From Gemmatimonadota bacterium (GTDB taxonomy: Bacteria; JAAXHH01), in assembly GCA_009837395.1 (NCBI GenBank), contig VXTP01000044.1, positions 17,062 through 81,061 on the forward strand: 64,000 nt of DNA, given 5' to 3'. The translations under genes and the position numbers were made by a program. Each line of letters opens with the position of its first letter. Positions within the stretch are counted from its first letter, which is position 1. Positions 8,718 through 50,900 of the stretch are shown here, piece by piece. Below the pieces are notes generated by a model that did no database searches, was not told the origin of the DNA, and saw only the letters and a list, made by a program, of their open reading frames with translations.

Positions 8718-8884
8718 GGTTAGGTTCTGGCGATAAGGGAAGCGGTCCGGGGCCACCTGCTTCCGGTTGATACGGTAGTAGCAGGCACCGGTGCAGACCC
8801 TGTCAGTGACGTTGACGAAAATGTTGGCGGATTCATCCTGTACCTAATATGTCGATCGATTAAGTTAATGACAAGTTGCAAGGT

Positions 8885-8929
8885 CCCAAACCGTGTCGCG
8901 GGAGACCCAAACCGTGTCGCTGGAGACCC
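8885..8929. repeat. 21-bp tandem duplication including the RBS
   Basis: CCCAAACCGTGTCGC(G/T)GGAGA x2 immediately before ATG 8934. Confidence 0.85.
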
Positions 8930-8933
8930 GGAC

Positions 8934-10536: not shown

Positions 10537-11022
10537 ATGGATCGTTTTATTGAAGTGACCTTGAAGAAACGCGGTGTGAGCTGCATAGCGCGATTGCTGG
10601 ACGACCTCGCGCCCAGAACATGCGAGGCGATGTGGAACGCCCTCCCGCAGGAGGGAGATGCCTTTCACGCCAAGTATGCGAGCAACGAAGTCTATACCCT
10701 CGTCCCATCCTTCGCGCCAAGCGAGATCGGTATGGAGAATCCCACAGTTACGCCGATCACCGGCGATCTGCTTTACTTCTTCTTTCCCCCCGGCGCCGTT
10801 AATGTGCCATCGTTGCGCGAGGCCGCGGTCAGTACGGGTCTGGTCGATCTTGCGATCTTCTACGGACGGGACAATCTGATCCTGTCGCCCAACATGGGCC
10901 TGGTCCCCGGTAATCGCTTTGGCGAGGTTACGGAGAATCTCGAGGAGATGGTGGAGGCGTGCACGAGCGTCTGGCGCGAGGGATTCGCCGGAGAGCGGCT
11001 GGCGTTCAGCCGGGTGGAGTAG
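10537..11022 (+). CDS. DUF3830 family protein (cyclophilin-like fold)
   Basis: LLDDLAPRTC, HAKYASNEVY, ENPTVTPITGD, LAIFYGR. Confidence 0.85.
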   Translation: MDRFIEVTLKKRGVSCIARLLDDLAPRTCEAMWNALPQEGDAFHAKYASNEVYTLVPSFAPSEIGMENPTVTPITGDLLYFFFPPGAVNVPSLREAAVSTGLVDLAIFYGRDNLILSPNMGLVPGNRFGEVTENLEEMVEACTSVWREGFAGERLAFSRVE

Positions 11023-11077
11023 ATCGGATCAGTTCACCCATCGTATCGCTCTTTAGGGTTCTTTCGTTGAGCCTGCC

Positions 11078-11659
11078 TTATGGATTCTGATTGGGATGAA
11101 TCGGGCGTTGCCGGACGTATTCCGATCGCGTGATCTCGAAATCCAGCTTTCTGTCCGACGATTCGCCTGCGATTCTCAGTCCACAGGCCCGCCATAGCGC
11201 GACGGAACGGGCGTTGTTCACGGAAACATCTATGGGACGAAGCCGGTCGATTTCCAGCACCTCAAACGCGTACTCCATCAAACAGCATACTACTTCCCTG
11301 CCATATCCTCGGCCCCACAAGGACTTGTCCCAAATCCCGATCGGCATGCGCATCACCTTCTCGTCCGGAATCTTTGCGCGGTCCAGATTCATCCACTGAA
11401 GGCATACCTCGCCGATCGTCCTGCCGCTCGCCTTTTCCACGATGGCAAAAAGAAACCCTTGCTCTGCCATGATCCTGCCCACCCGTGTGAGCGAATCCGC
11501 CGTCGGCGGATCGGCCGGCGGTTCTCCTTCCATGGCATTCAGGAATTCGGAATCCCGGTAGTAGGCCTCCGCGATCTCGAAATCTGCCTCCCGGAAAGGA
11601 CGAAGTTGCAGGCGCGCGGTTTGCAGATGGACCTGGTGCCCGGCAAAGTGATCTTGCAT
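11078..11659 (-). CDS. GNAT N-acetyltransferase (RimJ/RimL-like)
   Basis: LQTARLQLRPF, WGRGYG, NARSVAL. Confidence 0.85.
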   Translation of the reverse strand: MQDHFAGHQVHLQTARLQLRPFREADFEIAEAYYRDSEFLNAMEGEPPADPPTADSLTRVGRIMAEQGFLFAIVEKASGRTIGEVCLQWMNLDRAKIPDEKVMRMPIGIWDKSLWGRGYGREVVCCLMEYAFEVLEIDRLRPIDVSVNNARSVALWRACGLRIAGESSDRKLDFEITRSEYVRQRPIHPNQNP

Positions 11660-11713
11660 GTCCGAATGATGTTCCTTGACCGTGATTTCACGTGAATACG
11701 TTTTGAATCAGGC

Positions 11714-12406
11714 TCAATCCAGACTTAACAGGGCAGGGAGGTCGGTCAATGTAGCGATTTGGCAATCGGGTTCTATTCCCGTATCATTGAATGCGCCATT
11801 GCGATTCAACCACACCGCACGCACACCAACGGCCTGCGCGCCTCCGACGTCCGTTTCCAGCGAATCGCCCACGTGTAACAGTTGGTCCAGGCCACAGCCT
11901 GCCCTCTGTGCCGCGATCTGAAAGGTTTCCGGATCCGGTTTCTCGATTCCGATATCCTGTGCGTAGACGGCGAAGTCGAAACGTCCGTCGAGTCCGAAGT
12001 ACTCCGGGTAGTTGTTGCCATTCGACAGCAGGCCGAGTTTGAAACGCGGGGCAAGGGCATCGAGCATGGGCACGACGTCCTCGTAGGGTTCGATGTCGTT
12101 GTACCGGTGTTCCAGGTATACTTCGTTAAGACGTGTCGAGAGATCGGGTCCCGTGTATCCTACGTAATCAAGCATTTTGTAGAAGGACCTCCGCCGGATC
12201 TCGTCGAAGTCTCTTACCTTTCCCACGTAATATTTCTCTTCCCGGTCACGAATAGACCACATCTGCTCAACCGTCAGGCTCTGGGATCGCTTGCCCGGTA
12301 CGCGCTTTATCAGTTCCTCACGAACGGATTCCATGGATCGCATGATGACCAGGTCTGTGTCGATCAGGGTCTGGTCGACGTCGAAGGAAATTGCGGTGAT
12401 GTTCAC
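11714..12406 (-). CDS. HAD-family hydrolase
   Basis: FDVDQTL, LSNGN, EKPD, HVGDSLETD. Confidence 0.9.
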   Translation of the reverse strand: MNITAISFDVDQTLIDTDLVIMRSMESVREELIKRVPGKRSQSLTVEQMWSIRDREEKYYVGKVRDFDEIRRRSFYKMLDYVGYTGPDLSTRLNEVYLEHRYNDIEPYEDVVPMLDALAPRFKLGLLSNGNNYPEYFGLDGRFDFAVYAQDIGIEKPDPETFQIAAQRAGCGLDQLLHVGDSLETDVGGAQAVGVRAVWLNRNGAFNDTGIEPDCQIATLTDLPALLSLD

Positions 12407-12515
12407 GGTTTACCCCAGGTAGCTTCGGTGAAAGCCATACAGACAGATTTAGACCGGAAAATTGCACTTCAGCATAAAGTACAGTATTAGGAAGTAGTGA
12501 TCACCCTGTAAATAA

Positions 12516-12575
12516 TGTATATAAAACTTGATAAAATGATTATATATATTTACATTATGTCATAATAACTCGACA
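12516..12575. promoter_or_regulatory. Three 18-bp imperfect palindromes at 21-bp period, putative XRE operators
   Basis: TGTATA-N6-TTGATA (12516), TGATTA-N6-TTTACA (12537), TGTCAT-N6-TCGACA (12558). Confidence 0.7.
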
Positions 12576-12631
12576 CGGCGATTACTTCAGTACATTACAA
12601 ATTCAATCTTCGAGTGAGGAGGCAGCACACG

Positions 12632-13012
12632 ATGAGACAAACTACAATACGTTATTTGCTGGAATTCGGCGGCTCCATGCTGGCCTATGTAGTCGTACAG
12701 GTAGCGTCGCTGATGTTTCTGAGAGAGAACCTCGATTCACCCTGGCGGATCCCGGTTACGGTGGCGCCGGTGATCCCCTTCGTGTTCATGATGCTGGCCG
12801 TGGTTCGTTTCGTTCGGCGTATGGATGAAATGCTCAGGCACTTACATCTTGAAGCGGTTGTGATCGCGTACATTGCCACCCTGATATTCTGTTTGAGCTA
12901 CGGGTTGCTGGAAAACGTGGGATTTCCTTCCTTCAACACGATGTGGGTTGGCTTTGTCATGATTCTGCTTTGGAGTATGGGGCAACTCGTCGCCGGCAGG
13001 AAGTACCGATGA
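12632..13012 (+). CDS. Hypothetical 4-TM membrane protein
   Basis: GAGGAGG RBS, four hydrophobic segments, RRMDE loop; ATGA overlap with the XRE gene. Confidence 0.8.
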   Translation: MRQTTIRYLLEFGGSMLAYVVVQVASLMFLRENLDSPWRIPVTVAPVIPFVFMMLAVVRFVRRMDEMLRHLHLEAVVIAYIATLIFCLSYGLLENVGFPSFNTMWVGFVMILLWSMGQLVAGRKYR

Positions 13013-13374: not shown

Positions 13375-15036
13375 CTACGCACGTTCCGGCAGCCACTCTT
13401 CCCGGATCCACTCATTCCATCGGCGCGCAAGATCCAGCCGCGATGCACGGAGGTCGTCGGAGTAGAACGGCTCTCCATGCCTGTAAGGCGGCGTCATTTC
13501 CAGCCGGTGAGCCGTTATTGCTTCCAGCGCATTCCTTCGAGTTGCAAAGCTCGAAATTCGATTCGCCCGGGCGTCCTCCTCCAGGCCGGCCAGGATTGCA
13601 CAGGCCATTCGCGGATCCGCCATCTGTACGGCAAGCTGGAGGGCCGCGTAGCGGACATCCGGGTTCGTATCATTGAAGAGGTCGGGTAACGCCGTGGTGC
13701 ATTCTGTCCAGAGATCCGAATGTTTACGCAGCAGAGATATGATGGCGGCGCGGACGAAAGGAGAATCGTCCCTGAACGCTTCGATGATCTCGGAAGCGTT
13801 TATCGAGGAGCGTCCCATGGCCAGGGCACACGACGCAGCGGCTCGGACGCGGGGATCCGTATGTCGCAAACACGTCCGGAAGGGTATCAATACATTGTCA
13901 GGGAGCGCGTTCTCGTCTCCGACAAAAGAGAGAATGGCTGCTTTAACGTGTTCCGGATCGCTATCTCCCAGCATCCCCAGTCTGGACGCTACGGATAGCG
14001 AGCGTAACACGGTCCAGGGCTGGCGGGGCCAGATTCCGTGGTCACGACGGGTTGCCGATGGCGTTGAGCCCAGGGCGGCGCGGACCGAAACGAGACCGGC
14101 GCGCAGGTCGGTCCATCCCGGCTGTTGTATGGACGATTCGATGAGGGCCGACTTCATTTCCTGGCTCGTCCATTCGGGTCGCGCCTGCCACAGACAGGCC
14201 GCGACGCCAAGGACTATCGGTCCGGCGAACGAGGTGCCGTGCAGTCGCGCGTATCGACGGGGCAGATCGTCGATCTTCCCGTAGTAGTGGTGCTCAATCT
14301 CTTTATCGGTTCCATGCGGCAGCACGATGTTCGCTGCGGGCGCCAGGATTTCGGGTATCCACTTCCCTTCGAAGGTCGTTCCCCGGCATCCGGGAAAAAC
14401 ATCCGCGCTCCCAGGATCTCCATTCGATGGAATCACGACCCCGCCGACAGAAAGAGCGGAAGGAGCCGCTGCTTCTGCCAAAGCGGCCGTCCGGTCAGAT
14501 AGGTTTCCCGAACCGGATACGACAAGAACCCCCTCGGACGCGATTTCCTCGCACAATACCCTGACTGGGTCCGACTGCCAGGGTAGAAGGCTTGCGTCCA
14601 AAGCGCTTTTTCTAGCCGTTAAAACTCCGCGAATCTCATACTTCCGCCAATTGTCCCGGATCCATTCCAGGGACCTGAGATGCGCTTCATCTATTTTTCC
14701 CGGTTGCCGGCTCTGTCCGGGAAAATAACGGGCGACGAGAAACAGATCCGCATCGTGGGCCACACCCTTGTACAGCCCCCTGGATTCGGCGCCGGAACTT
14801 GCCGCGGCGGCCGCGGCCCAGAGACCGTGGGCACCGCCTTTCCACGGTCCGGATTCAACGTTAAACTCCTTCGGAACCAGATCTGGATCCATCACCATTA
14901 CTTTGTGGGAAGTACGGTGTTGGTTCGTAGTGATATCTGGATGATTCGGAAAATCGCCGTCGACAATCGCGATACGGACACCTTTTCCGGTCAATTCATC
15001 GGGAACGTTCAGAAAGTCCCGCAACGCTGGCCACAT
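13375..15036 (-). CDS. S8 (subtilisin-like) serine peptidase with C-terminal HEAT repeats
   Basis: GKGVRIAIVD, AHG, SGN and GTSFAGP; repeats DPRVRAAA, SPFVRAA, NPDVRYAA; no signal peptide. Confidence 0.88.
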   Translation of the reverse strand: MWPALRDFLNVPDELTGKGVRIAIVDGDFPNHPDITTNQHRTSHKVMVMDPDLVPKEFNVESGPWKGGAHGLWAAAAAASSGAESRGLYKGVAHDADLFLVARYFPGQSRQPGKIDEAHLRSLEWIRDNWRKYEIRGVLTARKSALDASLLPWQSDPVRVLCEEIASEGVLVVSGSGNLSDRTAALAEAAAPSALSVGGVVIPSNGDPGSADVFPGCRGTTFEGKWIPEILAPAANIVLPHGTDKEIEHHYYGKIDDLPRRYARLHGTSFAGPIVLGVAACLWQARPEWTSQEMKSALIESSIQQPGWTDLRAGLVSVRAALGSTPSATRRDHGIWPRQPWTVLRSLSVASRLGMLGDSDPEHVKAAILSFVGDENALPDNVLIPFRTCLRHTDPRVRAAASCALAMGRSSINASEIIEAFRDDSPFVRAAIISLLRKHSDLWTECTTALPDLFNDTNPDVRYAALQLAVQMADPRMACAILAGLEEDARANRISSFATRRNALEAITAHRLEMTPPYRHGEPFYSDDLRASRLDLARRWNEWIREEWLPERA

Positions 15037-38173: not shown

Positions 38174-38980
38174 GTGATCTTCATGTCTTCATGGAATCTG
38201 TTGAGCTGGAACGTGAACGGGGTAAGGGCGGTGGCGAAGAAGGGATTCATCGAGTGGCTCCAGGGGGAGGCGCCGGACATCCTGTGCATCCAGGAAACCA
38301 AATCCCAGGAGTCGCAGCTGGACGCCAAGATCACGGATGTCGACGGATACACGAGCTACTGGTCGGAAGCGGAGAAAAAAGGATACAGCGGCGTAGGTGT
38401 CTATACGCGCCACGAACCCATCAGCGTCGAGAAGGGGTTCGGCGAAGAGCGGTTCGATTCAGAAGGCCGGACCCTGGTGCTGGAGTATCCCGATTTCACC
38501 CTGTTCAACGTGTACTTCCCGAATGGCAAGCAGAACGCCCAGCGGCTGCAGTACAAGATGGACTTCTACGACACGATCCTCGCACACTGGGAATCCCTTC
38601 GCGCCGACGGCAAGAAACTGGTCATCTGCGGCGACGTAAATACAGCCCATAAAGCGATCGACCTCGCCCGGCCCAAGGACAACGAGAAGATCTCCGGGTT
38701 CCTGCCCATGGAGCGCGAGTGGATCGACAAGATCGTAGATATGGGTTACGTAGATACTTTCCGACAATACGACGAAGGGCCGGACAACTACACCTGGTGG
38801 CACCTCATGTCCGGAGCGAGAAAGCGGAACGTGGGCTGGCGCATTGATTACTTCTACGTAACCGAGGACCTGATGCCCTCAGTCTCCAACGCGTGGATCA
38901 TGCCGGACGTCATGGGATCGGATCACTGTCCGATCGGGATTGAGGTGGGGGTGGGTTTGGTGACATTGTCCTCAGTGTGA
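38174..38980 (+). CDS. xth: Exodeoxyribonuclease III
   Basis: SWNVNG, CIQETK, YFPNG, GDVNTAH, GWRIDY, SDHCP. Confidence 0.96.
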   Translation: MIFMSSWNLLSWNVNGVRAVAKKGFIEWLQGEAPDILCIQETKSQESQLDAKITDVDGYTSYWSEAEKKGYSGVGVYTRHEPISVEKGFGEERFDSEGRTLVLEYPDFTLFNVYFPNGKQNAQRLQYKMDFYDTILAHWESLRADGKKLVICGDVNTAHKAIDLARPKDNEKISGFLPMEREWIDKIVDMGYVDTFRQYDEGPDNYTWWHLMSGARKRNVGWRIDYFYVTEDLMPSVSNAWIMPDVMGSDHCPIGIEVGVGLVTLSSV

Positions 38981-39131: not shown

Positions 39132-42100
39132 ATGACACTGGAAGACCTTCAGGCCAACTCCTCGGTAAGTGGAGTGCTCCCCGATAGTTACGTCACAGTA
39201 GTCAGCGTTCAGTGGTATGGTACGGATGCGCTAGAGTTGACCTACAAGACACCGACTGGTAAGGTCGCAAATGAGCTACTGTACCGTGACGATGAACAAC
39301 GTCTCGAAATCGTAGAAGAAGGTCGACCTTGGAGTTTCGACGGCGACGGTAAGCTTTTTCGCTTGGTCTCGGAAGCTCAGCGTATCCGCCTTGCTCACCT
39401 TTTTGATCCAGTATTAGCCGTACATACCTCTGTAGTTGAGCCATTACCCCATCAGATTACAGCAGTCTACGAATCCATGTTGCCAAGGCAACCACTGCGC
39501 TTTCTGCTCGCCGATGATCCAGGCGCAGGGAAGACCATCATGGCGGGACTGCTTATGAAGGAGTTGATTGCCCGAGGCGATCTTCAGCGCTGTCTTGTTG
39601 TATGTCCCGGCAGCTTAGCAGAGCAGTGGCAAGATGAGCTCAATCGTAGGTTTCATTTGCCCTTCGAAATCCTAACGAACGACAAACTTGAAGCAGCCCG
39701 AACGGGGAACTGGTTTCTTGAAGCGAACCTCGTAATAGCCAGACTGGACAAGCTATCACGCAATGAGGACGTGAAGCAGAAGCTACAAGCGCCGGACTGT
39801 CGCTGGGACCTTGTTGTATGCGACGAGGCGCATAAGATGTCTGCTTCGTTCTTCGGCCGAGAGATCAAGTACACGAAGCGCTACCAACTGGGTCAACTGT
39901 TATCGGGCTTAACCCGTCATTTTCTTTTGATGACAGCCACCCCGCACAACGGGAAAGAAGAAGATTTTCAGCTTTTCATGGCACTTATCGATGGTGATCG
40001 TTTCGAAGGACGGTTTCGTGATGGCGTTCATGTCGCGGATGTTTCTGACCTGATGCGGCGCATGGTAAAAGAGAATCTGCTTAAGTTCGATGGAACCCCA
40101 CTTTTTCCTGAACGAATCGCTTACACGGTACCTTACAAACTGTCCGATGAGGAAGCCCATCTTTACCGGGCCGTTACCGAGTACGTACGTGAGGAGTTTA
40201 ACCGCGCTGAAGCGCTTAAAAACGATAAGCGAGCCGGCACCGTCGGCTTCGCCTTGACAATCCTGCAACGCCGATTGGCCTCTTCGCCAGAAGCAATCCA
40301 CCAGTCCCTACGTCGACGTCGTGAACGTTTGGAAAGTCGATTGAGGGAGCTAGAATTGCTGCAGCGAGGTAGTCAGACCGATTTCCCATTTGATTCTGCC
40401 GGACCGGAACTTGACGCAGAAGATGTCGAGGACCTCGACGAAGCGCCTGACAGTGAGGTCGAAGCGGCCGAGGAGGAAGTTCTAGACCAGGCAACCGCAG
40501 CGCGATCAATCGACGAATTGAAGGCCGAGATAAATACACTCAAGAAACTGGAAAGTCTTGCCCTTGGCGTACGACAAAGCGGGTCCGACACCAAATGGCG
40601 GGAGCTAGCAGATCTCTTAGGTGAGATATTCACCACGGGCGGGTCTACAGGACGAATTGCCGAGCCGGATTTACCGTACCGGGCTGGGGAAATCCCCAAA
40701 CCCACCTCGTCTGCAAGACAAAAACTGGTCATCTTTACCGAACATAGGGATACGTTGCGTTATCTGCAGGGACGAATAACGACTCTGCTGGGACGTGAGG
40801 AGTCCGTCGTGCTGATACACGGAGGCGTGGGACGTGAGGAACGACTTAAAGCACAGGAAGCTTTCCGTCACGACCCCGATGTGCAGGTGCTGCTTGCCAC
40901 CGACGCGGCGGGAGAAGGTATAAATCTGCAACGTGCGCATTTAATGGTGAATTACGATCTGCCTTGGAACCCCAATCGATTGGAACAACGCTTCGGGCGA
41001 ATACACCGTATCGGTCAGACCGAAGTTTGTCATCTTTGGAACTTGGTCGCGAACGAAACGCGCGAGGGCGACGTATATAGCACACTCCTCGAGAAGCTGG
41101 AGCAAGCCCGTCAAACTCTCGGTGGTCAAGTGTTCGACGTACTTGGAAAGCTGCAATTTGAGGGGCGGCCCCTACGCGATTTATTAGTCGAGGCGGTACG
41201 ATACGGGGAGAGACCGGAGGTTCGAGCCCGGTTGACTACCGCGGTCGATCATGCCCTTGACCGTGATCGGCTTCAGGATCTATTGGATGAGCGTGCTCTT
41301 GCGCACGATGCTATGGATTCAAGCGGTGTACACCGAATACGTGAGGACATGGAACGGGCCGAAGCACGCCGTCTGCAACCCCACTACGTCGAGTCGTTCT
41401 TCAGTGAGTCGTTCAAATTGCTGGGAGGAACAGTAAAACAACGCGAAGCTCGTCGATACGAGATCACCCATGTTCCCTCGTCAGTTCGGAACAGGGACAG
41501 ATTGATTGGTATCGTTGAACCGATACTGCCACGGTATGAACGTATAACCTTCGAGAAATCGCTGGTCGCACCTCAGGGTCAGCCGCTGGCTGCATTTGTT
41601 TGCCCAGGACACCCTTTGCTCGATGCAGTAATCGACCTGACGCTGGAACGAAATCGTAATCTCTTGAAACGTGGAACAGTTTTAGTCGACGAAAGTGATT
41701 TTGGTGATAAGCCCCATGTACTTTTTTATCTCGAGCATGCAATCCAGGATGCGAGCCAGACGCGCTCGGAGGAACGCCGAGTCGTCTCCAGACGCATGCT
41801 GTATGTCGAGATTGATTCGGAGGGTGTGGCACGGCCTGTGCATCACGCGCCTTATCTAGACCTTAGACCACTTTCCGAAGATGAACCCAGCTTGGAAGCC
41901 GTACTGGGCCGACCGGAGTGTGCTTGGATCAACCGGGAGTTGGAAAAGAAGGCACAAAGCTATGCCGTTGCTAATGTGGTTCACGAGCATTTGACAGAGA
42001 TTCGCGATTCAAAACTAGCCCTGATATCTAAGACTGTAGCCGCGGTAAAGGACCGACTCACAAAGGAGATCACCTACTGGGATCATCGAGCAGAACAGCT

Positions 42101-42710
42101 CAAGCTACAGGAGCAGGCCGGAAAGACCGGCGTCCGTCTGAATTCCGGCGAGGCACGTAAAAGGGCCGACATGCTACAAGCGCGCCTGCAGAAGCGGCTG
42201 GAGGAACTTGAACTCGAAGCACAGATCTCTCCTCTGCCTCCGGTTGTATTGGGAGGACTACTGGTTGTGCCTAAAGGACTCATCGATGAGATGGTCGGGC
42301 GTGATTCGACGGATAGAGTTTCAGCTTTAGATACGCAGGAATCTGCCGCACGTGCTCGTAACATTGTCATGGAAGTCGAGCGGAGTTTAGGATATGAACC
42401 AGTCGACCGAGAGTTCGAGAAACTGGGTTACGACATCGAAAGCGTAGTACCTGAAAGCGGAAAGTTAAGGTTTATCGAGGTAAAGGGTCGTATCAGCGGG
42501 GCATCAACGATAACGGTGACCCGTAACGAAATCCTCTGTTCCCTCAATAAACCGGATGACTATATCCTAGCCATCGTGGAATTCAAGGATGGAACAGACT
42601 ATCAGGTTCACTACGTACGCGAACCTTTCAAACGTGAACCAGACTTTGGGGTAACGAGTGTCAATTATGATTTTGGCGAGTTGCTCGATCGGACACAAGA
42701 TCCGTCTTAA
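39132..42710 (+). CDS. SNF2-family helicase with C-terminal DUF3883 (NOV_C) nuclease-like domain
   Basis: LADDPGAGKT, DEAH, TATPH, QRFGRIHRIGQ; C-terminal GYDIES...RFIEVKG. Confidence 0.93.
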   Translation: MTLEDLQANSSVSGVLPDSYVTVVSVQWYGTDALELTYKTPTGKVANELLYRDDEQRLEIVEEGRPWSFDGDGKLFRLVSEAQRIRLAHLFDPVLAVHTSVVEPLPHQITAVYESMLPRQPLRFLLADDPGAGKTIMAGLLMKELIARGDLQRCLVVCPGSLAEQWQDELNRRFHLPFEILTNDKLEAARTGNWFLEANLVIARLDKLSRNEDVKQKLQAPDCRWDLVVCDEAHKMSASFFGREIKYTKRYQLGQLLSGLTRHFLLMTATPHNGKEEDFQLFMALIDGDRFEGRFRDGVHVADVSDLMRRMVKENLLKFDGTPLFPERIAYTVPYKLSDEEAHLYRAVTEYVREEFNRAEALKNDKRAGTVGFALTILQRRLASSPEAIHQSLRRRRERLESRLRELELLQRGSQTDFPFDSAGPELDAEDVEDLDEAPDSEVEAAEEEVLDQATAARSIDELKAEINTLKKLESLALGVRQSGSDTKWRELADLLGEIFTTGGSTGRIAEPDLPYRAGEIPKPTSSARQKLVIFTEHRDTLRYLQGRITTLLGREESVVLIHGGVGREERLKAQEAFRHDPDVQVLLATDAAGEGINLQRAHLMVNYDLPWNPNRLEQRFGRIHRIGQTEVCHLWNLVANETREGDVYSTLLEKLEQARQTLGGQVFDVLGKLQFEGRPLRDLLVEAVRYGERPEVRARLTTAVDHALDRDRLQDLLDERALAHDAMDSSGVHRIREDMERAEARRLQPHYVESFFSESFKLLGGTVKQREARRYEITHVPSSVRNRDRLIGIVEPILPRYERITFEKSLVAPQGQPLAAFVCPGHPLLDAVIDLTLERNRNLLKRGTVLVDESDFGDKPHVLFYLEHAIQDASQTRSEERRVVSRRMLYVEIDSEGVARPVHHAPYLDLRPLSEDEPSLEAVLGRPECAWINRELEKKAQSYAVANVVHEHLTEIRDSKLALISKTVAAVKDRLTKEITYWDHRAEQLKLQEQAGKTGVRLNSGEARKRADMLQARLQKRLEELELEAQISPLPPVVLGGLLVVPKGLIDEMVGRDSTDRVSALDTQESAARARNIVMEVERSLGYEPVDREFEKLGYDIESVVPESGKLRFIEVKGRISGASTITVTRNEILCSLNKPDDYILAIVEFKDGTDYQVHYVREPFKREPDFGVTSVNYDFGELLDRTQDPS

Positions 42711-42956
42711 ATCTGTCAAAGAACCCAAGAAACAATAAAAACAGTGCACCTCAACGAAGACTATCTTACAAATTGACCGATTAACTTTGCAACTGAAATG
42801 GTTGAGTCCATTCGATACTGGCAATCGGATACATTGAGTTTTGGTTTACACAGCGGTAATTTGTAGCAACACGGTCGATACCGAAATCCAACACTAACAA
42901 GCCGGAAACTTGCGAGTATAGTAACCGTAATAGATTACCCGAATGGAGAATACACC

Positions 42957-44474
42957 ATGAACGGTTTAAACATCGAAGAACCTCTCGACCTCGAAGTGAC
43001 TGATTTCGGTCCGATCGTTGAGGCAAAGATCGATCTGCGCCCATTGACTGTATTCGTTGGACCAAGCAATACAGGGAAATCCTATCTGGCGATACTTATC
43101 TATGCACTACATCGAGTTTTCAGTGGCGATGAAATGTGGAGATCTTCTAGGCACTTTGCCTCAAGGCATCGAATGTTGCGACGTAACAGATCAAAGAATC
43201 TGTCGCAAAAAGCAATCACTGCTATTTGGGAATTGCTGGATAAACTGGTTGCAGACAAAAATAGACTTAAATCTGGAGGAAACTTTGTTCTCCATCCCCC
43301 AGTATTAGATGCGATTCATTCTGCGTATGCGGTAAGCGGTAACCAACTTGGCAATGAATTTGATCGATGCTACGGCATTGACGCAGGCACACTGATTCGT
43401 AAGGGAAGCAGAAAGGGCACACGTCTTGCTTTTCGAAAACCACTATCTAACGATTCGGCACCTATTGAATACGAGCTAGAAATTAGAGCGAACAACATCG
43501 AATACGGAATGACAATCCCCCAAGATGCATCGATACAGATTGATGTCGAGAAGGGGAACATGCTGATGGAGAACTTTCTATTTGATTCCAACGAGCTTGT
43601 AGCCATGGGGCGCCAAGGATCCGAAGAGAGACACGAAATAGCTTGGTACCTGATGGATGCTCTTTGTGATCTCGCCTGGCCTCAACTTACAGGTCCTCTA
43701 TATCGACCTGCATTTTATCTTCCTGCCGATCGGACTGGAGTAATGCACGCACACCGTGTAGTCGTAAGCGCCATGATCGGAAGCGCGCGGATGACAGGAT
43801 TGCGTCCTACAGGACAAACGCCCATGCTCTCTGGAGTTCTGGCAGATTTTCTTCAGCAATTAATCGATATCGACCATCCGCCTAGTGGACGCCGAAAGAA
43901 ACAAGGTGATCTCGGCAGCAGTATCGAAGAGTCGATTCTTGGAGGATCAGTACGAGTCGATAGATCAGAGATGATCGATTACCCTCACTTTACCTATAAA
44001 CCTAGGGGATGGAAGGAACCGCTACATTTGATGAATGCTTCGTCTATGGTTTCGGAACTTGCACCGGTGGTGCTGTACCTGCGACATGTAGTGGAACGCG
44101 GCAATCTCCTAATTGTCGAGGAACCGGAATCGCATCTACATCCGGCAATGCAGGTCGAGTTTACCCGCCAACTCGCATTGCTTGTACAAAAAGGGGTCAG
44201 GGTGATAATAACGACGCACAGCGAATGGATACTGGAGGAACTCGCCAATGTAGTACGGCGCTCTGAACTGCCTGATACTCGACGTCAAGAAGTCTCACAA
44301 GGCAATTACTCATTAAGTTCGGATCAGGTAGGTGTGTGGTTATTCAAACCACAGTTAAAGCCCAAGGGATCGTTGGTAGAGGAAATCCCTATTGACGATT
44401 CGGGTCTATATCCATCTGGTTTCGAAGTGGTAGCGACCGCACTACATAATGATTGGGCCGAAATTTCTAGATAG
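42957..44474 (+). CDS. ABC-type ATPase (AAA_15/AAA_21 family)
   Basis: DFGPI, Walker A GPSNTGKS, ASSMVSEL, Walker B IVEEPESHLHP, ITTHS; no TM segments. Confidence 0.92.
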   Translation: MNGLNIEEPLDLEVTDFGPIVEAKIDLRPLTVFVGPSNTGKSYLAILIYALHRVFSGDEMWRSSRHFASRHRMLRRNRSKNLSQKAITAIWELLDKLVADKNRLKSGGNFVLHPPVLDAIHSAYAVSGNQLGNEFDRCYGIDAGTLIRKGSRKGTRLAFRKPLSNDSAPIEYELEIRANNIEYGMTIPQDASIQIDVEKGNMLMENFLFDSNELVAMGRQGSEERHEIAWYLMDALCDLAWPQLTGPLYRPAFYLPADRTGVMHAHRVVVSAMIGSARMTGLRPTGQTPMLSGVLADFLQQLIDIDHPPSGRRKKQGDLGSSIEESILGGSVRVDRSEMIDYPHFTYKPRGWKEPLHLMNASSMVSELAPVVLYLRHVVERGNLLIVEEPESHLHPAMQVEFTRQLALLVQKGVRVIITTHSEWILEELANVVRRSELPDTRRQEVSQGNYSLSSDQVGVWLFKPQLKPKGSLVEEIPIDDSGLYPSGFEVVATALHNDWAEISR

Positions 44475-44488
44475 AGTGGAGAGGTCAA

Positions 44489-44968
44489 ATGAACGGGTTG
44501 GTGGCAATGGTTCGCAATAAAGTCCACGAATCGTGTTTGACAAACGGACGCATCAGAAAAAGCGGATGCTCTGCGAATCTAAATGGAGCACCGCAGCCGC
44601 GTTTAATTATAGATTTCGATAGACCCGGCGCACCAATTGGTCCTAGCCAGGGACGCTGCGACTATCTGTTCGTGGCGACTGGCGAAGAGAGTTGGGATTG
44701 GGTCGCACCTTTAGAATTAAAAAGGGGTGACTTTGACGCCAGCCAAATAGTCGGACAGCTTAAAGCAGGTGCTCGTTCCGCAGAGAACCTAATCCCTCAG
44801 AATGCACCGGTAGAATTCCGACCTGTCGCTGTATTTGGCGGAGGAATACGTAAAGCAGAACGAAACGCACTAAAGATAAGGTCCAACCGCGTGCGGTTCC
44901 ATTTAACTTACGAATCCATAAGGTTAATAAAGTGTGGTGGCCTATTGACCGGAGGCCTTCATCCGTGA
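44489..44968 (+). CDS. Hypothetical protein, putative PD-(D/E)XK nuclease fold
   Basis: GGAGAGG RBS; RCDYL...LELK...QL pattern; stop overlaps the next GTG. Confidence 0.7.
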   Translation: MNGLVAMVRNKVHESCLTNGRIRKSGCSANLNGAPQPRLIIDFDRPGAPIGPSQGRCDYLFVATGEESWDWVAPLELKRGDFDASQIVGQLKAGARSAENLIPQNAPVEFRPVAVFGGGIRKAERNALKIRSNRVRFHLTYESIRLIKCGGLLTGGLHP

Positions 44969-47877
44969 ATTCGATTGTAGCTAAAACTCGAAAAAAGCTC
45001 ATCGAGGTAGCTCTCCCTCTCGACGCCATCAACATAGCCTCGGCACGAGAGAAGTCTATCCGGCACGGGCATCCTAGCACGTTACACTTGTGGTGGGCAC
45101 GGCGGCCATTGGCAGCCGCGAGGGCTGTCATTTTCGCGCAAATGGTCGACGATCCTTCGAGCTCGCCTGATTTATTCACAACAGGAAAGGCGCAAGAAAA
45201 GGAGCGTCGTCGACTATTTCGCATTATTGAAGAACTGGTGAAGTGGGAAAACACCAACAATGAGCAGTTACTACAGCAGGCTCGCGACGAGATCTGGCAG
45301 AGTTGGCGGCGAGCTTGCGCAGAGAATTCCGATCATCCACAGGCCAGGGAACTGTTTGAGCGGTACGAACTTCCTGCGTTTCACGATCCCTTTGCCGGTG
45401 GTGGTGCACTGCCACTTGAAGCGCAGCGGCTTGGTCTCAAAGCCCATGCCAGCGACCTAAATCCAGTAGCAGTACTTATTAACAAAGCAATGATCGAAAT
45501 CCCACCGAAGTTCGCTGGTAGAACACCGGTGAATCCGGAAACTCGACCTGGTGGTGTTTCCGATAAGGGAACTCTAATAGAGCACGACTGGATGGGCGCG
45601 AAGGGTCTAGCCGAGGACATACGCTACTACGGTCAGTGGATGCACCGCGAAGCCGAGAAACGGATCGGTCATTTGTATCCGAAAGTTGAGATCACCGATG
45701 AAATGGTCCAGGAAAGGTCTGATCTTGAACGATTCAAAGGTAACAAACTGACAGTAATTGCGTGGCTATGGGCTCGAACTGTGAGAAGTCCGAATCCTGC
45801 GTTTGCTGATGTTGATGTACCGTTGGCTTCCTCATTTATGCTTTCAACAAAAAAAGGCAAAGAGGTCTATGTTGAGCCCGTGATTGAAGGAAAGGAATAC
45901 CGGTTTGTGGTAAAGATAGGTAAGCCGAAGGATGTAGATGCCAAAAAGAGAGGGACCACGTTAGGTAAGCGCCAGGCATTTCGATGCTTGATGTCTAACA
46001 CACCAGTAACATATGACCATATCCGAGCAGAAGGTAAAGCCGGACGTTTGGGTAGGCGATTGATGGCCATTGTTGCAGAAAGTGATCGTGGTCGTATATA
46101 CCTTACTTCAACATCCGAACATGAAATAGCGGCGTCAACAGCAACACCGAACTGGAAGCCCAATATCCAACTACCCATAAACCCAAGAGATTTTATGACC
46201 CCTAATTATGGCATAGATACCTTCGCCGATCTCTTTACTGATCGTCAACTTGTTGCACTTACCACCTTCTCTAATTTGGTATCTGAAGCGATGGAGCGTG
46301 TAAAGCGGGATGCCAGTATCGATATAGCACAGGACAAGCGACCACTGCGGGAAGGAGGTGGTGGTGTGACGGCGTATGCTGAGGCGGTAGGAGTGTATTT
46401 GGCGATGGCGGTGAATCGTATGGCAAATACTCTATGTACAGTTGCACGTTGGACCACGGGACGTGAGCAAACAGTTACTGCATTTGCGCGACAAGCAATT
46501 CCAATGACCTGGGATTATCCTGACGTTAATCCATTTGCTGGTGCTGCTGGTGACTATGCTGTGTCCGTAAAGGGAGTAGTTAAGGGAATAACAAGTGTCA
46601 CTGATGTCGATGGCAGTGCAAACCTCGAAGATGCATCAGTTCAAACCGTCAGTGTCTCAAAAGTCATCTCCACCGACCCACCATACTATGATAACATTAA
46701 TTACGCTGACCTCTCCGACTTCTTCTACGTTTGGTTGCGACGTGCTCTACGTCCTATTTTCCCTAACCTCTTTTCCACCGTCGTCGTCCCCAAGACTGAA
46801 GAATTGGTTGCCACTCCCTATCGGCACGGTAGCAAGGAAAAGGCGGAGACGTTCTTTCTCGACGGTATGACACGAGCAATGGGGCGTCTCGCAACGCAAT
46901 CACATCCATGTTTTCCAGTCACGATTTACTATGCATTCAAACAGTCCGAGACCAAAGAGAGTGGGGGTACTTCAAGTACAGGATGGGAGACTTTTCTCGA
47001 TGCAGTAATCCGCGCTGGCTTCAGAATTACGGGTACGTGGCCCATGCGGACTGAACTTGGTAATCGCATGATCGGAGCTGGCACGAACGTCCTAGCCTCT
47101 AGCATAGTTCTTGTCTGCCGTCAGTCGCCTTCCAGCTCACCGTTAGCAACCCGACGCGATTTCATCAACGCACTAAGGACCGAACTACCAACCTCCCTTC
47201 TCCATCTGCAATCCGGCAACGTCGCACCGGTCGATCTCGCCCAAGCCTCCATTGGACCGGGTATGTCTATATACACACGCTACGCCAAGGTACTAGACTC
47301 CGAAGGCAAGCCTGTCTCTGTGCATGACGCCCTAGCGTTAATCAACCGGATTCTTGACGAAGTACTGGCAGAGCAGGAAGGCGATTTCGATGCCGACAGT
47401 CGCTGGGCACTTGCTTGGTTCGAGCAATACGGTTTTGAGGTTGGTGAATACGGAGTCGCTGAGACATTATCCAAGGCCAAGAATACCAGCATTGATGGAA
47501 TCGCCGAGGGTGGTATCCTTGTATCAAAATCTGGCAAAGTAAGGCTGCTGAGACCTGAGGAGTTAGACGACGAATGGGATCCAATGTCCGATACACGGAT
47601 CTCCGTAAGGGAGGCTGTCCACCGTCTAATCAGCGCGCAGGAGACCTATGGCGAAGAAGGAGCAGCTCGGTTGGCGGCTCGTTTAGGAAGCTGGGCCGAT
47701 GTCGCTCGCGAAATGGCTTATCGTCTTTATACAATTTGCGAACGCAAGAATCGCGCCGCGGAAGCGCTCACCTACAATAGTTTGGTGCAGAGCTGGCCAG
47801 AGATTGCCCGCCTATCACAACAGGAAGACTCGGGTGTACAGGATAACCTGTTCGGTGACAGAATCGATCATTCATAG
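44965..47877 (+). CDS. DUF1156 domain adenine DNA methyltransferase
   Basis: KKLIEVALPL, LHLWWARRPL, DPFAGGG (motif I), TDPPYYDN (motif IV). Confidence 0.93.
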   Translation: MNSIVAKTRKKLIEVALPLDAINIASAREKSIRHGHPSTLHLWWARRPLAAARAVIFAQMVDDPSSSPDLFTTGKAQEKERRRLFRIIEELVKWENTNNEQLLQQARDEIWQSWRRACAENSDHPQARELFERYELPAFHDPFAGGGALPLEAQRLGLKAHASDLNPVAVLINKAMIEIPPKFAGRTPVNPETRPGGVSDKGTLIEHDWMGAKGLAEDIRYYGQWMHREAEKRIGHLYPKVEITDEMVQERSDLERFKGNKLTVIAWLWARTVRSPNPAFADVDVPLASSFMLSTKKGKEVYVEPVIEGKEYRFVVKIGKPKDVDAKKRGTTLGKRQAFRCLMSNTPVTYDHIRAEGKAGRLGRRLMAIVAESDRGRIYLTSTSEHEIAASTATPNWKPNIQLPINPRDFMTPNYGIDTFADLFTDRQLVALTTFSNLVSEAMERVKRDASIDIAQDKRPLREGGGGVTAYAEAVGVYLAMAVNRMANTLCTVARWTTGREQTVTAFARQAIPMTWDYPDVNPFAGAAGDYAVSVKGVVKGITSVTDVDGSANLEDASVQTVSVSKVISTDPPYYDNINYADLSDFFYVWLRRALRPIFPNLFSTVVVPKTEELVATPYRHGSKEKAETFFLDGMTRAMGRLATQSHPCFPVTIYYAFKQSETKESGGTSSTGWETFLDAVIRAGFRITGTWPMRTELGNRMIGAGTNVLASSIVLVCRQSPSSSPLATRRDFINALRTELPTSLLHLQSGNVAPVDLAQASIGPGMSIYTRYAKVLDSEGKPVSVHDALALINRILDEVLAEQEGDFDADSRWALAWFEQYGFEVGEYGVAETLSKAKNTSIDGIAEGGILVSKSGKVRLLRPEELDDEWDPMSDTRISVREAVHRLISAQETYGEEGAARLAARLGSWADVAREMAYRLYTICERKNRAAEALTYNSLVQSWPEIARLSQQEDSGVQDNLFGDRIDHS

Positions 47878-47912: not shown

Positions 47913-50900
47913 ATGGCAATCACTAACCAGGAACGCGTCGGCAATGCTCTGAAGTTGCTCCAAAAGGGCTTGGCACCTTTTGTAGTGCGTGAGTTTGAGA
48001 GTTCGCTCGGAGCGCAATGGTTTTCCGAAGCCAGAAGCTATCTAGGTGATGATCGTCTGCGCGATAGCGAGTCAATCGAAGAGTGGGACGTTGCGGCGCT
48101 TCTAAAGCTTATGTGGGAATCCTGGAACGTCGTTTTTCGCCAGACTCTGGGTCGCACTGAGCGTAGTCTGGTCAGTGAGCTACGTGATCAACGAAACCAA
48201 TGGGCGCATCAACGGACGTTCTCAAGCGATGATGCCTACCGGGTGTTAGATTCAGCTGATCGGCTACTGGCTGCCGTATCGGCACCACAAACAGTCGAGC
48301 TAGAGAAGCTCAAGATGGAATTGCTGCGAGTGCGATTCGATGAACAAGCGCGCACAGAGCGCCGCAAGCAGTCCAGTTTGGCCATTGAGAGTGCCACAGT
48401 TACAGATTTGAAGCCATGGCGGGAAGTAGTCACACCACACAAGGATGTCGCAAGTGGGCAGTATCAGCAGGCAGAATTTGCAGCTGATCTGTGGCAAGTG
48501 CACCTGGGTGAAGGTACAAACGAATATAGAGATCCGGTCGAGTTCTTTCGTCGCACATACCTTACGGAGAGTTTGAAAGGCTTGATGACTGGCGCAATTC
48601 AGCGCCTCTCAGGTAAAGGAGGCGACCCGGTCGTCAATCTCCAGACTAACTTCGGAGGTGGCAAGACCCACTCGATGCTGGCGTTGTATCATCTATTTTC
48701 GGGTACAGTTTCTGGGGAACTGGATGAAGTTGGTGAGGTAATGAAGGAAGCTGATGAAGAAGAGCTCGTTAGTGCCCGTCGAGTAGTACTTGTGGGAAAC
48801 AAAATCTCACCCGGAAACCCAACCACGAAATCAGATGGTACGGTCATACGTACACTTTGGGGCGAGTTGGCGTGGCAGTTAGGTGGCAAGCCGGCTTTTG
48901 ATAGGGTCGCAGATGACGACGAAAACGCTACGAATCCTGGAGATGTACTTCGAGAACTCTTCAACGAATATGGTCCATGCCTTGTCCTCATAGATGAATG
49001 GGTTGCCTATGCCCGTCAACTGCATAGTCAAAGTGATCTACCTGCCGGAAGTTTTGAGACTCAATTCACTTTTGCCCAAGCTCTCACGGAATCTGCCAAA
49101 CTCGCGGATAAGTGTCTGCTGGTTATCAGCTTACCGGCGTCGGATACTACAGGATCACCTCACACTACAGCCGACGATACCGAGGTTGGTGGTCAACGCG
49201 GACGGGAAGCCCTGATTCGGCTGCAGAATGTCGTAGGGCGGATTGCATCGTCCTGGCGACCGGCCAGTGCCGAGGAGAGTTTTGAGATTGTTCGCCGACG
49301 GCTTTTCGAACCGTTCTCGGAGCCAGTTCAGTTCAGGGATCGGGATGTAATTGCCCGAGCGTTTGCAGATCTCTATCGAACTCAGCACCAGGAGTTTCCT
49401 CCCGAATGTCGAAACGCAGACTACGAGAAGCGAATCAAGGCGGCCTATCCAATCCATCCGGAGATTTTTGATCGCCTTTACACGGATTGGTCCACTCTGG
49501 TGAAGTTCCAGCGCACCCGTGGTGTCTTGCGATTGATGGCAGCAGTCATTCACAGTCTGTGGGAGAAAGGGGACCGTAATCCGCTGATTCTGCCAGCTAA
49601 CATCGCGATTGACGATCGGTATGTACAATTCGAACTGACCCGGTATCTCACGGACAACTGGGTACCAGTTATTGAGAAGGACGTAGATGGCCCTGGGTCG
49701 CTTCCTGTCCAACTTGACGGCCAAGTCACTAACCTTGGCAAATTCAGTGCTTCCAGACGGGTTGCTCGTACAATCTACCTCGGATCCGCCCCCACAGCCG
49801 ATGCATCACATCGAGGTCTTGAGGACCGGCGTGTCAAGCTTGGTTGTGTGATGCCTGGGGAGTCTTCAGCAGTATTCGGTGATGCGCTGAGACGGCTTGC
49901 AGGAGCGGCGACCTATCTTTATCAGGACGGTCCCCGGTATTGGTACTCTACACAACCAACCGTCACGAAACTTGCAGAAGATCGCGCCGAACAATTGAAG
50001 CGACATCCCGAAATGGTTGCTGAAGAACTCGGTTCACGCCTTCGATCCGATCTCCGTAATGCGGGAGACTTCAGTCGTGTACATCCTCTCCCTGAATCTG
50101 GTCAAGATGTCCCTGATGATAGGGATGCTCGATTGGTAGTGCTAGGTATTGCCCAAGCCTACAGCAAGGAAACAGAAAACCTCGCAGAAACAACCGCGAA
50201 CGCAATATTGGAATCGAGAGGTAGCACACCTCGGGTTTTTCGAAATTCGCTCGTTTTTCTTGCCGCGGACAACATCAGGTTGCAGGATCTCGATGAAGCA
50301 GTTCGGCAGTATTTAGCTTGGAAATCGATTCTTACAGAACGCGAGCAGCACAATCTTTCATCGCATCAGGTCAAACAGGCCGAGACTCAAAAAGAAGCAG
50401 CATCCGACGCGATTACTGCCCGACTTCCAGAGACGTACCAGTGGCTTTTGGTTCCTGTGCAGTTGCGCCCTGACGCCACGATCGAATGGCAGGCCATGCG
50501 ACTGTCAGGAAGGGATTCGTTGGCTGTAAGAGCAAGCAATAAACTGAAAGCCGATGAGTTGTTGATAAGCAGTTTTGCCTCAACAAGACTTCGGATGGAG
50601 CTTGATCGTGTGCCCCTCTGGCGCGGCGACCGTGTGTCGATCAAACAGGTCATAGATGATTTTGCCAAGTATCTTTATCTGCCCCGAGTCAGGGATTCTA
50701 GCGTACTATTGAATTCGATTGCCGACGGAATCGCTTTGCTCACTTGGGAGCAGGATTCGTATGCTATTGCGGACAGTTACGACGATGTAGCGAAGAGGTT
50801 TCGGGGCCTGCGTGGTGGACAAGCGGTTACGTTATCGGACGTTGACATACAAGGGTTGCTCGTTAAACCCGAAACTGCACGTATTCAACTCGATGCTGAG

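Follow-up and report, generated by a model that had tools for sequence, protein, structure and literature searches.

What is an ATP-binding cassette (ABC) ATPase gene, followed by a gene for a 159-amino-acid protein, doing between the helicase and methylase genes of a restriction-like operon? The question is raised by a 64,000-nucleotide stretch of a Gemmatimonadota genome (contig VXTP01000044.1), referred to here as the window, in which the two genes interrupt an Hma locus. An original prediction, made from the letters alone, proposed that they form an undescribed defence module that backs up the surrounding restriction system. Our analysis indicates that the pair is probably an autonomous, horizontally mobile anti-phage cassette, made up of an ABC-ATPase sensor or regulator and a small PD-(D/E)xK effector, which Hma loci carry as exchangeable cargo. 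Its named relatives are PD-T4-4, the candidate system PDC-M47 and, by architecture, WonAB, and it is not a new kind of system.

The arrangement described in the original prediction is borne out by the open reading frames (ORFs) and by Pfam and PADLOC matches (Table 1). The ATPase gene and the 159-amino-acid gene lie between an SNF2 helicase gene (hmaA) and a methyltransferase gene (hmaB), the predicted 246-nucleotide AT-rich spacer precedes them, and the stop codon of the small gene overlaps the hmaB start as GTGA (44965-44968). The restriction-like operon in which they are nested is an Hma system, with HmaA, HmaB and HmaC encoded once each, near full length and on one strand, and a role of the pair as a defence module is most likely.

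On the evidence of its homologs, the 159-amino-acid reading frame is clearly a real conserved gene. A word-indexed search finds 160 homologs at E ≤ 1e-3, and a profile search of 1.84 billion representatives finds 1193, 747 and 205 at thresholds of E ≤ 1e-3, 1e-10 and 1e-30, respectively, the 1193 matches being cluster representatives at 50% identity. Pfam, NCBIfam and PHROGs return zero families for the window protein. The TOPRIM, HNH and HEPN models are all silent, in line with the original prediction, which saw none of these motifs in the protein. A sequence-profile search of the PDB with an alignment of the small proteins (A4) gives 0 matches at E ≤ 1, and the ESM Atlas returns unnamed hypothetical-protein clusters only (scores 0.96-0.93).

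The structural model of the small protein points to a nuclease. AlphaFold2 predicts it with a mean predicted local distance difference test (pLDDT) of 91.5 and a predicted template modelling score of 0.88. The top Foldseek rows are mostly restriction-endonuclease-like (BsmI, EcoO109I, FokI, NucC, Mus81, Cas4, Bse634I and NucS), with E values of at least 8e-3. The top 20 rows from VIA-align, a search independent of Foldseek, are all nuclease domains or folds of the PD-(D/E)xK type, with Z scores from 6.8 to 4.8; they include Can2, Cdn1, VC1899, Can1, NucS (Z 5.9), AF1548, Upx, PaqCI and BspD6I, together with BsmI, FokI, Bse634I, SdaI, Card1, CdiA-CT, Cfr10I and BsaWI. A VIA-align Z under 8 can mean merely a common arrangement, and because the values obtained are middling, the fold call rests on the consistent neighbours, the two aligners and the sequence motif taken together. 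The predicted model has the alpha-beta-beta-beta-alpha-beta core of the PD-(D/E)xK fold, supporting the minimal PD-(D/E)xK-like effector that had been proposed.

The motif segments RCDYL (residues 56-60), LELK (75-78) and QL (90-91) are conserved among relatives. Across 81 relatives, D58 and E76 are each present in 81, Q90 in 80 and K78 in 69. D58 and E76-x-K78 conform to the D...(D/E)-x-K pattern and are candidate catalytic residues, along with Q90. Four cysteines are also widely kept in the same relatives (C16 in 70, C27 in 81, C57 in 78 and C149 in 76) and may form a zinc or iron-sulfur site. We know of no four-cysteine metal or iron-sulfur site in effectors of the PD-T4-4 or WonB type.

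The 505-amino-acid product of the upstream gene can be placed, by sequence and model, in the OLD/PtuA/SMC-head clade of ABC ATPases that is common to many defence systems. Both AAA_15 and AAA_21 match in Pfam, in keeping with the soluble AAA_15/21 ATPase originally described, and NCBIfam gives weak generic ABC matches only. Foldseek relates the AlphaFold2 model (pLDDT 78.4) to PtuA of Septu and retron I-A complexes at 8e-11, to OLD at 1e-8 and to SMC/Rad50 heads at 1e-8. The protein contains what we take to be Walker A (GPSNTGKS, residues 35-42), the Walker B/D-loop (LLIVEEPESHLHP, with E388 and E389) and the H-loop (TTHS, 419-422). An alignment of 37 sequences (A2; the window protein and 36 relatives) shows no variation in GPSNTGKS of Walker A, EEPExxLHP of the Walker B/D-loop or TTHSE of the H-loop region; the invariant positions are G35, S37-S42 (with K41), E388, E389, P390, E391, H395 and T419-E423. 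Residues from about 55 to 330 form a long insert, and a conserved extension at the C-terminus has its own invariant positions in the 37 ATPases (L453, V458, G459, W461, F463, G471, V492, A493, N498 and A501).

The ATPase and the small gene are an obligate pair. A pattern scan with one genome per species yields 54 loci, nearly all in metagenome-assembled genomes (MAGs), which span Latescibacterota, Chloroflexota, Acidobacteriota, Gemmatimonadota, Nitrospinota, Binatota, Alphaproteobacteria and Gammaproteobacteria; many of the loci are recorded as belonging to marine or sponge-type MAG bins. Counts of pair and Hma genes over these loci rest on tblastn and not on called ORFs, since the longest-ORF picker applied to the loci is crude and sometimes chose antisense ORFs in GC-rich ones. 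In 53 of the 54 loci the small gene is immediately preceded by an ATPase match, the exception (L022) being a locus that begins inside the small gene. The match spans at least 90% of the ATPase in 50 of the 54, and the homologous junction spacing is identical in 42 of the 53. Among 14 relatives whose junctions were examined, the ATPase stop overlaps the small-gene start, as ATGA, GTGA, TAATG or TGATG, in nine (L002, L004, L005, L006, L009, L010, L012, L016 and L036). The remaining five have the letters ATGA, GTGA or TTGA at the homologous spot, judged by letters and not by frame. At the window junction, the ATPase ends at an earlier TAG, followed by a 14-nucleotide gap containing GGAGAGG.

Two further analyses concern physical association of the two products. 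Prediction of a 1:1 complex of the ATPase and the small protein gives a score of 0.30 against a mark of 0.32 (runs of 0.00, 0.31 and 0.30), with the controls not folded, a result that counts neither for nor against binding. A search for longer fused forms returns three proteins, one of which (P0269, 687 amino acids, from one contig) is a full ATPase-small protein read-through. Since the ATPase and small genes overlap, a single wrong base at the overlapping stop and start in the assembly would yield the same read-through as a natural fusion, and P0269 may be one or the other; as a single contig, it is weak evidence for a unit. P0269 was considered as a Rosetta-stone fusion and set aside as too rare.

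Both components point to the same named relatives. Of 112 PADLOC families, PD-T4-4_A is the top match of the ATPase (6.9e-36), followed by PDC-M47A (model PDLC04664, 1.1e-29), NsnB (6.9e-26) and AriA (1.5e-21). The PD-T4-4_A alignment (PDLC04033) falls into two stretches, the better of which pairs residues 297-479 with profile positions 247-429 of 460, and this split makes the long middle insert look family-specific; a second PD-T4-4_A model (PDLC04032) matches at 3.1e-23. For the window small protein, PADLOC gives one match, to PDC-M47B (PDLC04665) at E=0.041 over residues 27-94 of 159, and no match to PD-T4-4_B even at E ≤ 10. At the level of the family (81 members, E ≤ 0.1), 48 members match the PDC-M47B model PDLC04668, with a best value of 1.7e-7, and the other four PDC-M47B models match 31 (PDLC04665), 16, 11 and 4 members. 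Matches to PD-T4-4_B (PDLC04037, best 0.0028), SduA and Cas4 are found in 3, 4 and 2 of the 81, respectively. A more distant copy in a congeneric genome (G022) matches PD-T4-4_B at 9.9e-5 and PDC-M47B at 4.1e-4 with its small protein, and PD-T4-4_A at 1.6e-36 with its ATPase. Because both components lead to these relatives, the pair appears to be a diverged lineage within the PD-T4-4/PDC-M47 group. The PDC-M47B model PDLC04668 has no match in 33 genomes of the phylum and 14 control genomes. A standard PADLOC run would probably miss the system, since the window small protein falls below significance.

These matches bear on the claim that the module is undescribed and belongs to no named system, which is not supported: PD-T4-4_A and PDC-M47A are the top ATPase matches, and PDC-M47B is matched by 48 of 81 family members. 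The original prediction had itself listed a match to an already named system as grounds for withdrawing that claim, and at the family level such a match is found. Nor is the setting novel, as Payne et al. 2024 (10.1101/2024.01.29.577857) deal, in the available text, chiefly with ABC-ATPase and effector cassettes in Hma loci.

The pair occurs both with and without Hma. Of the 54 loci, 16 have Hma sequence at a distance of up to 10 kb from the pair and the other 38 have none, and all three hma genes are present at ≥80% only in L004, L005, L006 and L036. In the window, L004 and L006, hmaA and hmaB flank the pair directly, and in L015 it sits between hmaB and hmaC; extra cargo stands beside it in L001, L002, L005 and L008. 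In a survey of 33 genomes of the window's phylum, the small-protein family is present in four (G000, which is the window genome, G005, G016 and G022) and full-length HmaB in two (G000 and G008), the two overlapping only in G000. The 38 loci that lack Hma, together with a sister Hma island that lacks the pair, indicate that the pair does not depend on Hma.

That sister island, in the congeneric genome G008 (locus L070, G008:C9:1937000-1956900), occupies the same place, with amino acid identities of 88% for HmaA, 71% for HmaB, 85.5% for HmaC and 84% for a GmrSD-like protein, and its right flank matches too. Between its hmaA and hmaB, it encodes TmtA of the Tiamat system where the window encodes the pair (Table 1), a direct cassette swap in the hmaA-hmaB slot. 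The TmtA ORF overlaps hmaA by 4 nucleotides and hmaB by 17.

Remnants of hma genes beside the pair suggest how such exchanges occur. In 11 of the 54 loci, the small gene is followed at once by a short fragment of the hmaB 5' end (DUF1156). Some of these loci have no full hmaB (L007, L019, L041, L046 and L048), and in L038 and L048 a piece of the hmaA 3' end stands before the ATPase. Such footprints would be expected if recombination in the flanking hma ends carried cassettes from one Hma locus to another, and they suggest that part of the solitary pairs have outlived the decay of an Hma locus around them. A quick maximum-likelihood tree of the 54 ATPases requires 11 or more changes between presence and absence of Hma (or a remnant) nearby, and on it the window ATPase clusters with copies from Acidobacteriota and Paracoccaceae (Shimodaira-Hasegawa-like approximate likelihood ratio test 92, not starred). 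Horizontal transfer fits both the grouping and the changes of context.

The other contents of these Hma loci include cargo from further defence systems. A PADLOC scan of the extra cargo, covering 10 ORFs in four Hma loci that carry the pair, gives matches for seven and none for three. The cargo comprises HEC-01A and HEC-01B in L005, NsnA in L015, an HEC-04-like protein with RmrA in L001, and a PD-Lambda-2_B-like protein with a PADLOC helicase in L008. HEC-01 in L005 occupies the same slot, directly after the pair. Such company favours a defence role for the pair. In L001, a Latescibacterota locus, a 432-amino-acid ORF occurs twice, at 7735-9030 (-) and 13486-14784 (+), where it interrupts the ATPase and hmaB; the 7735-9030 copy has no PADLOC match, and the ORF is probably an insertion sequence.

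Table 1. Coordinates of the cassette, the Hma island and the related features in other loci (window positions unless a locus is named)
Feature	Position	Strand	Evidence or remark
hmaA: SNF2 helicase with C-terminal NOV_C (PD-(D/E)xK-type)	39132..42710	+	PADLOC HmaA E=0, residues 1-1190; Pfam SNF2-rel_dom, Helicase_C, NOV_C
Exchangeable cassette	42688..44989	+	blastn of window vs L070: homology stops at 42687, resumes at 44990
Spacer, 246 nucleotides, 40.2% GC	42711..42956	+	neighbouring genes 47-52% GC
ABC ATPase, 505 amino acids, ATG start	42957..44474	+	Pfam AAA_15 2.5e-19, AAA_21 4.7e-12
Predicted PD-(D/E)xK-fold protein, 159 amino acids, ATG start, putative nuclease effector	44489..44968	+	AlphaFold2, Foldseek, VIA-align, conservation
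Four cysteine codons of the small gene	C16 44534-44536; C27 44567-44569; C57 44657-44659; C149 44933-44935		C57 directly before D58
hmaB: DUF1156 N6-adenine DNA methylase, 970 amino acids	44965..47877	+	PADLOC HmaB E=0; DUF1156 1.8e-31
hmaC: DUF499 ATPase, 1113 amino acids	47913..51254	+	PADLOC HmaC E=0, residues 165-1111; Pfam DUF499
GmrSD-like DUF262 protein 3' of hmaC, HEC-05-like, 661 amino acids	51293..53278	+	GmrSD_N 2.4e-26; HEC-05 8.5e-48
TmtA (Tiamat) in the G008 slot, 1409 amino acids	L070 11237..15466	-	PADLOC 1.3e-50
hmaB 5' fragments after the small gene	L007 10489-10707; L019 10486-10572; L041 10480-10671; L046 10471-10563		
hmaB 5' fragment; second complete hmaB downstream	L005 10478-10864; 13001-15733		
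Internal piece of hmaB (residues 119-461) following the small gene; complete copy downstream	L002 10525-11488; 14646-17513		

Several observations weigh against an autonomous anti-phage cassette. The window small protein reaches significance with no defence model in PADLOC, Pfam, NCBIfam or PHROGs, and PDC-M47 is itself a candidate system only. The structural scores are middling, with a best Z of 6.8 and no Foldseek match at E ≤ 1e-3, and K78 is replaced by T, M, S or Q in 12 of the 81 relatives. Searches with tblastn find neither phage copies nor close plasmid copies of the pair: the ATPase has no match in phage records and two partial matches in plasmids, covering 23-26% of the query at 31-36% identity. 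The neighbours of pairs outside Hma loci are often housekeeping genes, encoding a cupin, a luciferase-like monooxygenase, a flavin reductase, an ABC transporter or an ankyrin protein. A PADLOC scan of the first 124 of 249 neighbouring ORFs (≥150 amino acids, within 5 kb of the pair, in the 38 non-Hma loci), tallied per family, gives three ORFs for Type IIG/DrmMI, two for mad3 and one for Drt4. With a maximum of three ORFs in any family, these tallies give no clear defence-island signal beyond Hma. One such neighbour, in the Latescibacterota MAG locus L003, is a 724-amino-acid ankyrin-repeat protein that adjoins the pair (10541-12715, -).

A guard of the kind envisaged by the original prediction would have the ATPase sense anti-restriction proteins, or the inhibition of Hma, and release the nuclease in a second-line abortive response, like PARIS or PrrC. 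It would be a special case of the autonomous cassette, distinguished by its particular trigger. Hma near 16 of 54 loci is far above chance given the rarity of Hma, for which Payne et al. 2024, in the available text, count 1,485 systems in about 234,000 genomes. The hmaB 5' fragments found directly after the small gene in 11 loci also favour a guard, co-expression is consistent with the shared strand and with the GTGA overlap that joins the small gene to hmaB, and related ABC-ATPase systems are described as triggered by the anti-defence proteins Ocr and Stp (Payne et al. 2024). Set against this are the 38 loci that have no Hma gene within 10 kb, the three congeneric genomes that carry the pair without HmaB, the Tiamat gene in the sister Hma island, and the 11 or more changes of Hma context on the ATPase tree. 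The Hma slot is, moreover, a general insertion hotspot for unrelated systems, as two groups have described: Payne et al. 2024 report that 62.7% of Hma systems contain embedded genes, and the corresponding figure for insertions is 66.5% in Liu et al. 2024 (PMC11232893). Because the slot takes unrelated systems generally, the hotspot alone can explain the association of the pair with Hma. A guard role is best regarded as unlikely. It is likewise improbable that the pair clade is a dedicated Hma partner that travels with the hmaA 3' and hmaB 5' ends, is co-translated with hmaB and fires when a phage inhibitor blocks Hma, its nuclease perhaps carrying a four-cysteine site; were this so, the pair would be a true guard of the Hma system.

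Three other explanations were considered and rejected. The pair could belong to a variant of Hma as integral accessory subunits, for example as a missing restriction nuclease and motor, as its strand, the overlap of the small-gene stop with the hmaB start, and its position directly between hmaA and hmaB in three loci would allow. Hma has its own nuclease domain, however, the NOV_C of HmaA, which is reported to be needed for defence in Halomonas (PMC11232893, available text). The near-identical G008 Hma does without the pair, 38 of 54 pairs do without Hma, and the embedding varies, from the hmaB-hmaC position in L015 to the extra cargo in L001, L002, L005 and L008, leaving this explanation with only a very slim chance of being correct. 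An addiction module of toxin-antitoxin type, with the small nuclease as toxin and the ATPase as its antitoxin, could stabilise the island with no role against phages. Tight coupling of a small nuclease gene to that of a larger partner, solitary insertion among housekeeping genes in many genomes, and the mention of AbiEii/type IV toxin-antitoxin systems in the Pfam description of AAA_21 all speak for it. A simple toxin-antitoxin model has been ruled out for WonAB, the nearest studied analogue by architecture (PMC12137116, available text), and ABC motifs invariant in 37 sequences fit an active enzyme better than a sequestering antitoxin, so that such a module is highly improbable. Finally, the resemblance of the ATPase model to SMC/Rad50 heads and of the small protein to NucS/EndoMS (Z 5.9) could reflect a housekeeping pair for DNA repair or recombination, with a Rad50/RecN-like ATPase and a nuclease, that reached the island by chance. 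The patchy distribution (4 of 33 phylum genomes), an ATPase phylogeny incongruent with taxonomy, the location in a low-GC island and best sequence matches to defence ATPases leave this explanation scarcely credible.

If the pair is an anti-phage cassette, as we think probable, its mode of action can be sketched by analogy with WonAB and PD-T4-4. The ATPase would dimerise and bind the nuclease, possibly through the conserved C-terminal extension, by analogy with the predicted WonA-WonB interface (PMC12137116, available text). Once infection is sensed, ATP binding or hydrolysis would license the nuclease, which might cut phage DNA or else an RNA of the translation machinery, the kind of target suggested for WonB, so that the infection is aborted.

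The island surrounding the cassette has about 50% GC and extends over roughly 39-55 kb of the window, with 61-63% GC in both flanks. It contains six genes on the + strand, encoding proteins of 1192, 505, 159, 970, 1113 and 661 amino acids, and an exonuclease III-like gene (38174-38980) lies at its left edge. The GTG start of hmaB at 44965 agrees with the HmaB profile (residue 6 corresponds to profile position 5). The GmrSD-like protein appears to be a stable companion of the island and not variable cargo, since a copy with 84% amino acid identity occupies the same place in G008. The N-terminus of HmaC (window 47913-48410, residues 1-164) contains a Swt1-like HEPN domain (Pfam HEPN_Swt1, 1.9e-38, residues 12-123) that falls outside the PADLOC HmaC profile, whose alignment begins at residue 165; this domain could represent an RNase module joined to the DUF499 ATPase. 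HmaB is the least conserved of the Hma proteins between the two congeneric genomes, at 71% as against 85-88% for the others. A stretch within hmaB (window 46126-46668) is the sole part of the hma genes without DNA homology between G000 and G008, and it could be a target-recognition region of HmaB with a different specificity.

The sequence around the cassette contains few other signals. A single weak sigma-70-like match (42894-42922, 9 of 12 positions) occurs in the spacer, and a promoter scan of the region finds 5 sites against a shuffle mean of 12.6; with fewer sites than in the shuffles, the scan gives no promoter evidence. Rfam at E ≤ 1 gives 0 matches over window 42500-45100, and no tRNA genes are found in window 36000-57000. 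Repeats around the cassette are short pairs only, probably due to chance, with no flanking direct repeats.

The analysis adds a large family to the defence class that couples an ABC ATPase to a small restriction endonuclease. Pfam, NCBIfam and PHROGs lack a model for this family, PADLOC has none that matches significantly, and most members are from uncultured marine bacteria of many phyla. The analysis also documents an unambiguous natural exchange at the hmaA-hmaB hotspot, where two congeneric genomes carry Tiamat and the pair, respectively, and footprints of the hmaB 5' end are left beside the pair elsewhere. A profile built from the small-protein family would allow annotation tools to call the system, and the pair is only 2 kb long.

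Among known systems, those embedded in Hma provide the same setting. Hma-embedded ABC-ATPase systems are reported to give phage defence (Payne et al. 2024), and Liu et al. 2024 (PMC11232893) describe, in the available text, a pair of "AAA_21 ATPase + unannotated cognate" in Halomonas hma loci. HEC-01 to HEC-04 likewise comprise an ABC ATPase and an effector between hma genes on the same strand. They differ in their effectors, which are of the TOPRIM, NERD or PIN type as opposed to the minimal restriction-endonuclease-fold protein predicted here, and HEC-01A and HEC-02A match the ATPase at 1e-10 to 1e-12 only, over the Walker B region. PARIS (AriA/AriB), Septu (PtuA/PtuB), Gabija and OLD couple an ATPase of the same broad ABC clade to a nuclease, but have TOPRIM or HNH effectors and other insert domains. 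The similarity to AriA covers part of the ATPase only, with residues 353-426 as the best stretch. The small protein has a restriction-endonuclease-like predicted fold and no match to TOPRIM, the effector domain of AriB. For PARIS, the trigger is known (Ocr).

WonAB, from the WASA-1 prophage of Vibrio cholerae, consists of an ABC ATPase and a PD-(D/E)xK variant of about 16 kDa, according to the available text of its description (PMC12137116). Its authors see a similarity to PD-T4-4 and connect it with the "OLD-ABC ATPase + novel REase" (restriction endonuclease) operons of Krishnan et al. 2020 (PMC12137116). Among the relatives it supplies the mechanism with the firmest experimental footing, in which the nuclease depends on the ATPase for activation. 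Neither the ATPase motifs nor the nuclease residue K71 is dispensable for WonAB defence, WonB is toxic only with active WonA, and the outcome is abortive infection with translation shut-off and intact genomic DNA (PMC12137116). The likeness to the pair is one of architecture and protein sizes, set side by side from the published description and not from sequence. WonAB is borne by a prophage, whereas the pair here is without matches in phage records and has only the two partial matches in plasmids.

The closest relatives by sequence are PD-T4-4 and PDC-M47. PD-T4-4, a two-gene system (A and B), is said to have been validated for defence in E. coli by Vassallo et al. in 2022. Its nuclease is classed as PD-(D/E)xK (10.1101/2025.07.10.664194, available text), giving the same order of genes as in the pair, an ABC ATPase followed by a small nuclease, and its A component is matched by the ATPase. 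It differs in that its B model is unmatched by the window small protein, and family matches to B, although they suggest distant homology, are few and weak. PDC-M47 belongs to a set of 145 candidate systems (Payne et al. 2024) and is unnamed in the available main text of that paper. The window ATPase matches its A model, and its B models are matched at the family level, with the window small protein itself at E=0.041; it differs in its B profiles, which have 186-202 positions against about 157 for the small protein here. It was derived from genes embedded in BREX, DISARM or type I restriction-modification systems in RefSeq, whereas the pair is found mostly in MAGs of uncultured marine bacteria and with Hma. 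Compared with these systems, the pair brings no new mechanism, as embedded ABC-ATPase defences and the relatives PD-T4-4, PDC-M47 and WonAB are already in print. What is new is a large clade of this group that escapes current models, and the exchange of Tiamat and the pair in one Hma slot, with hmaB footprints.

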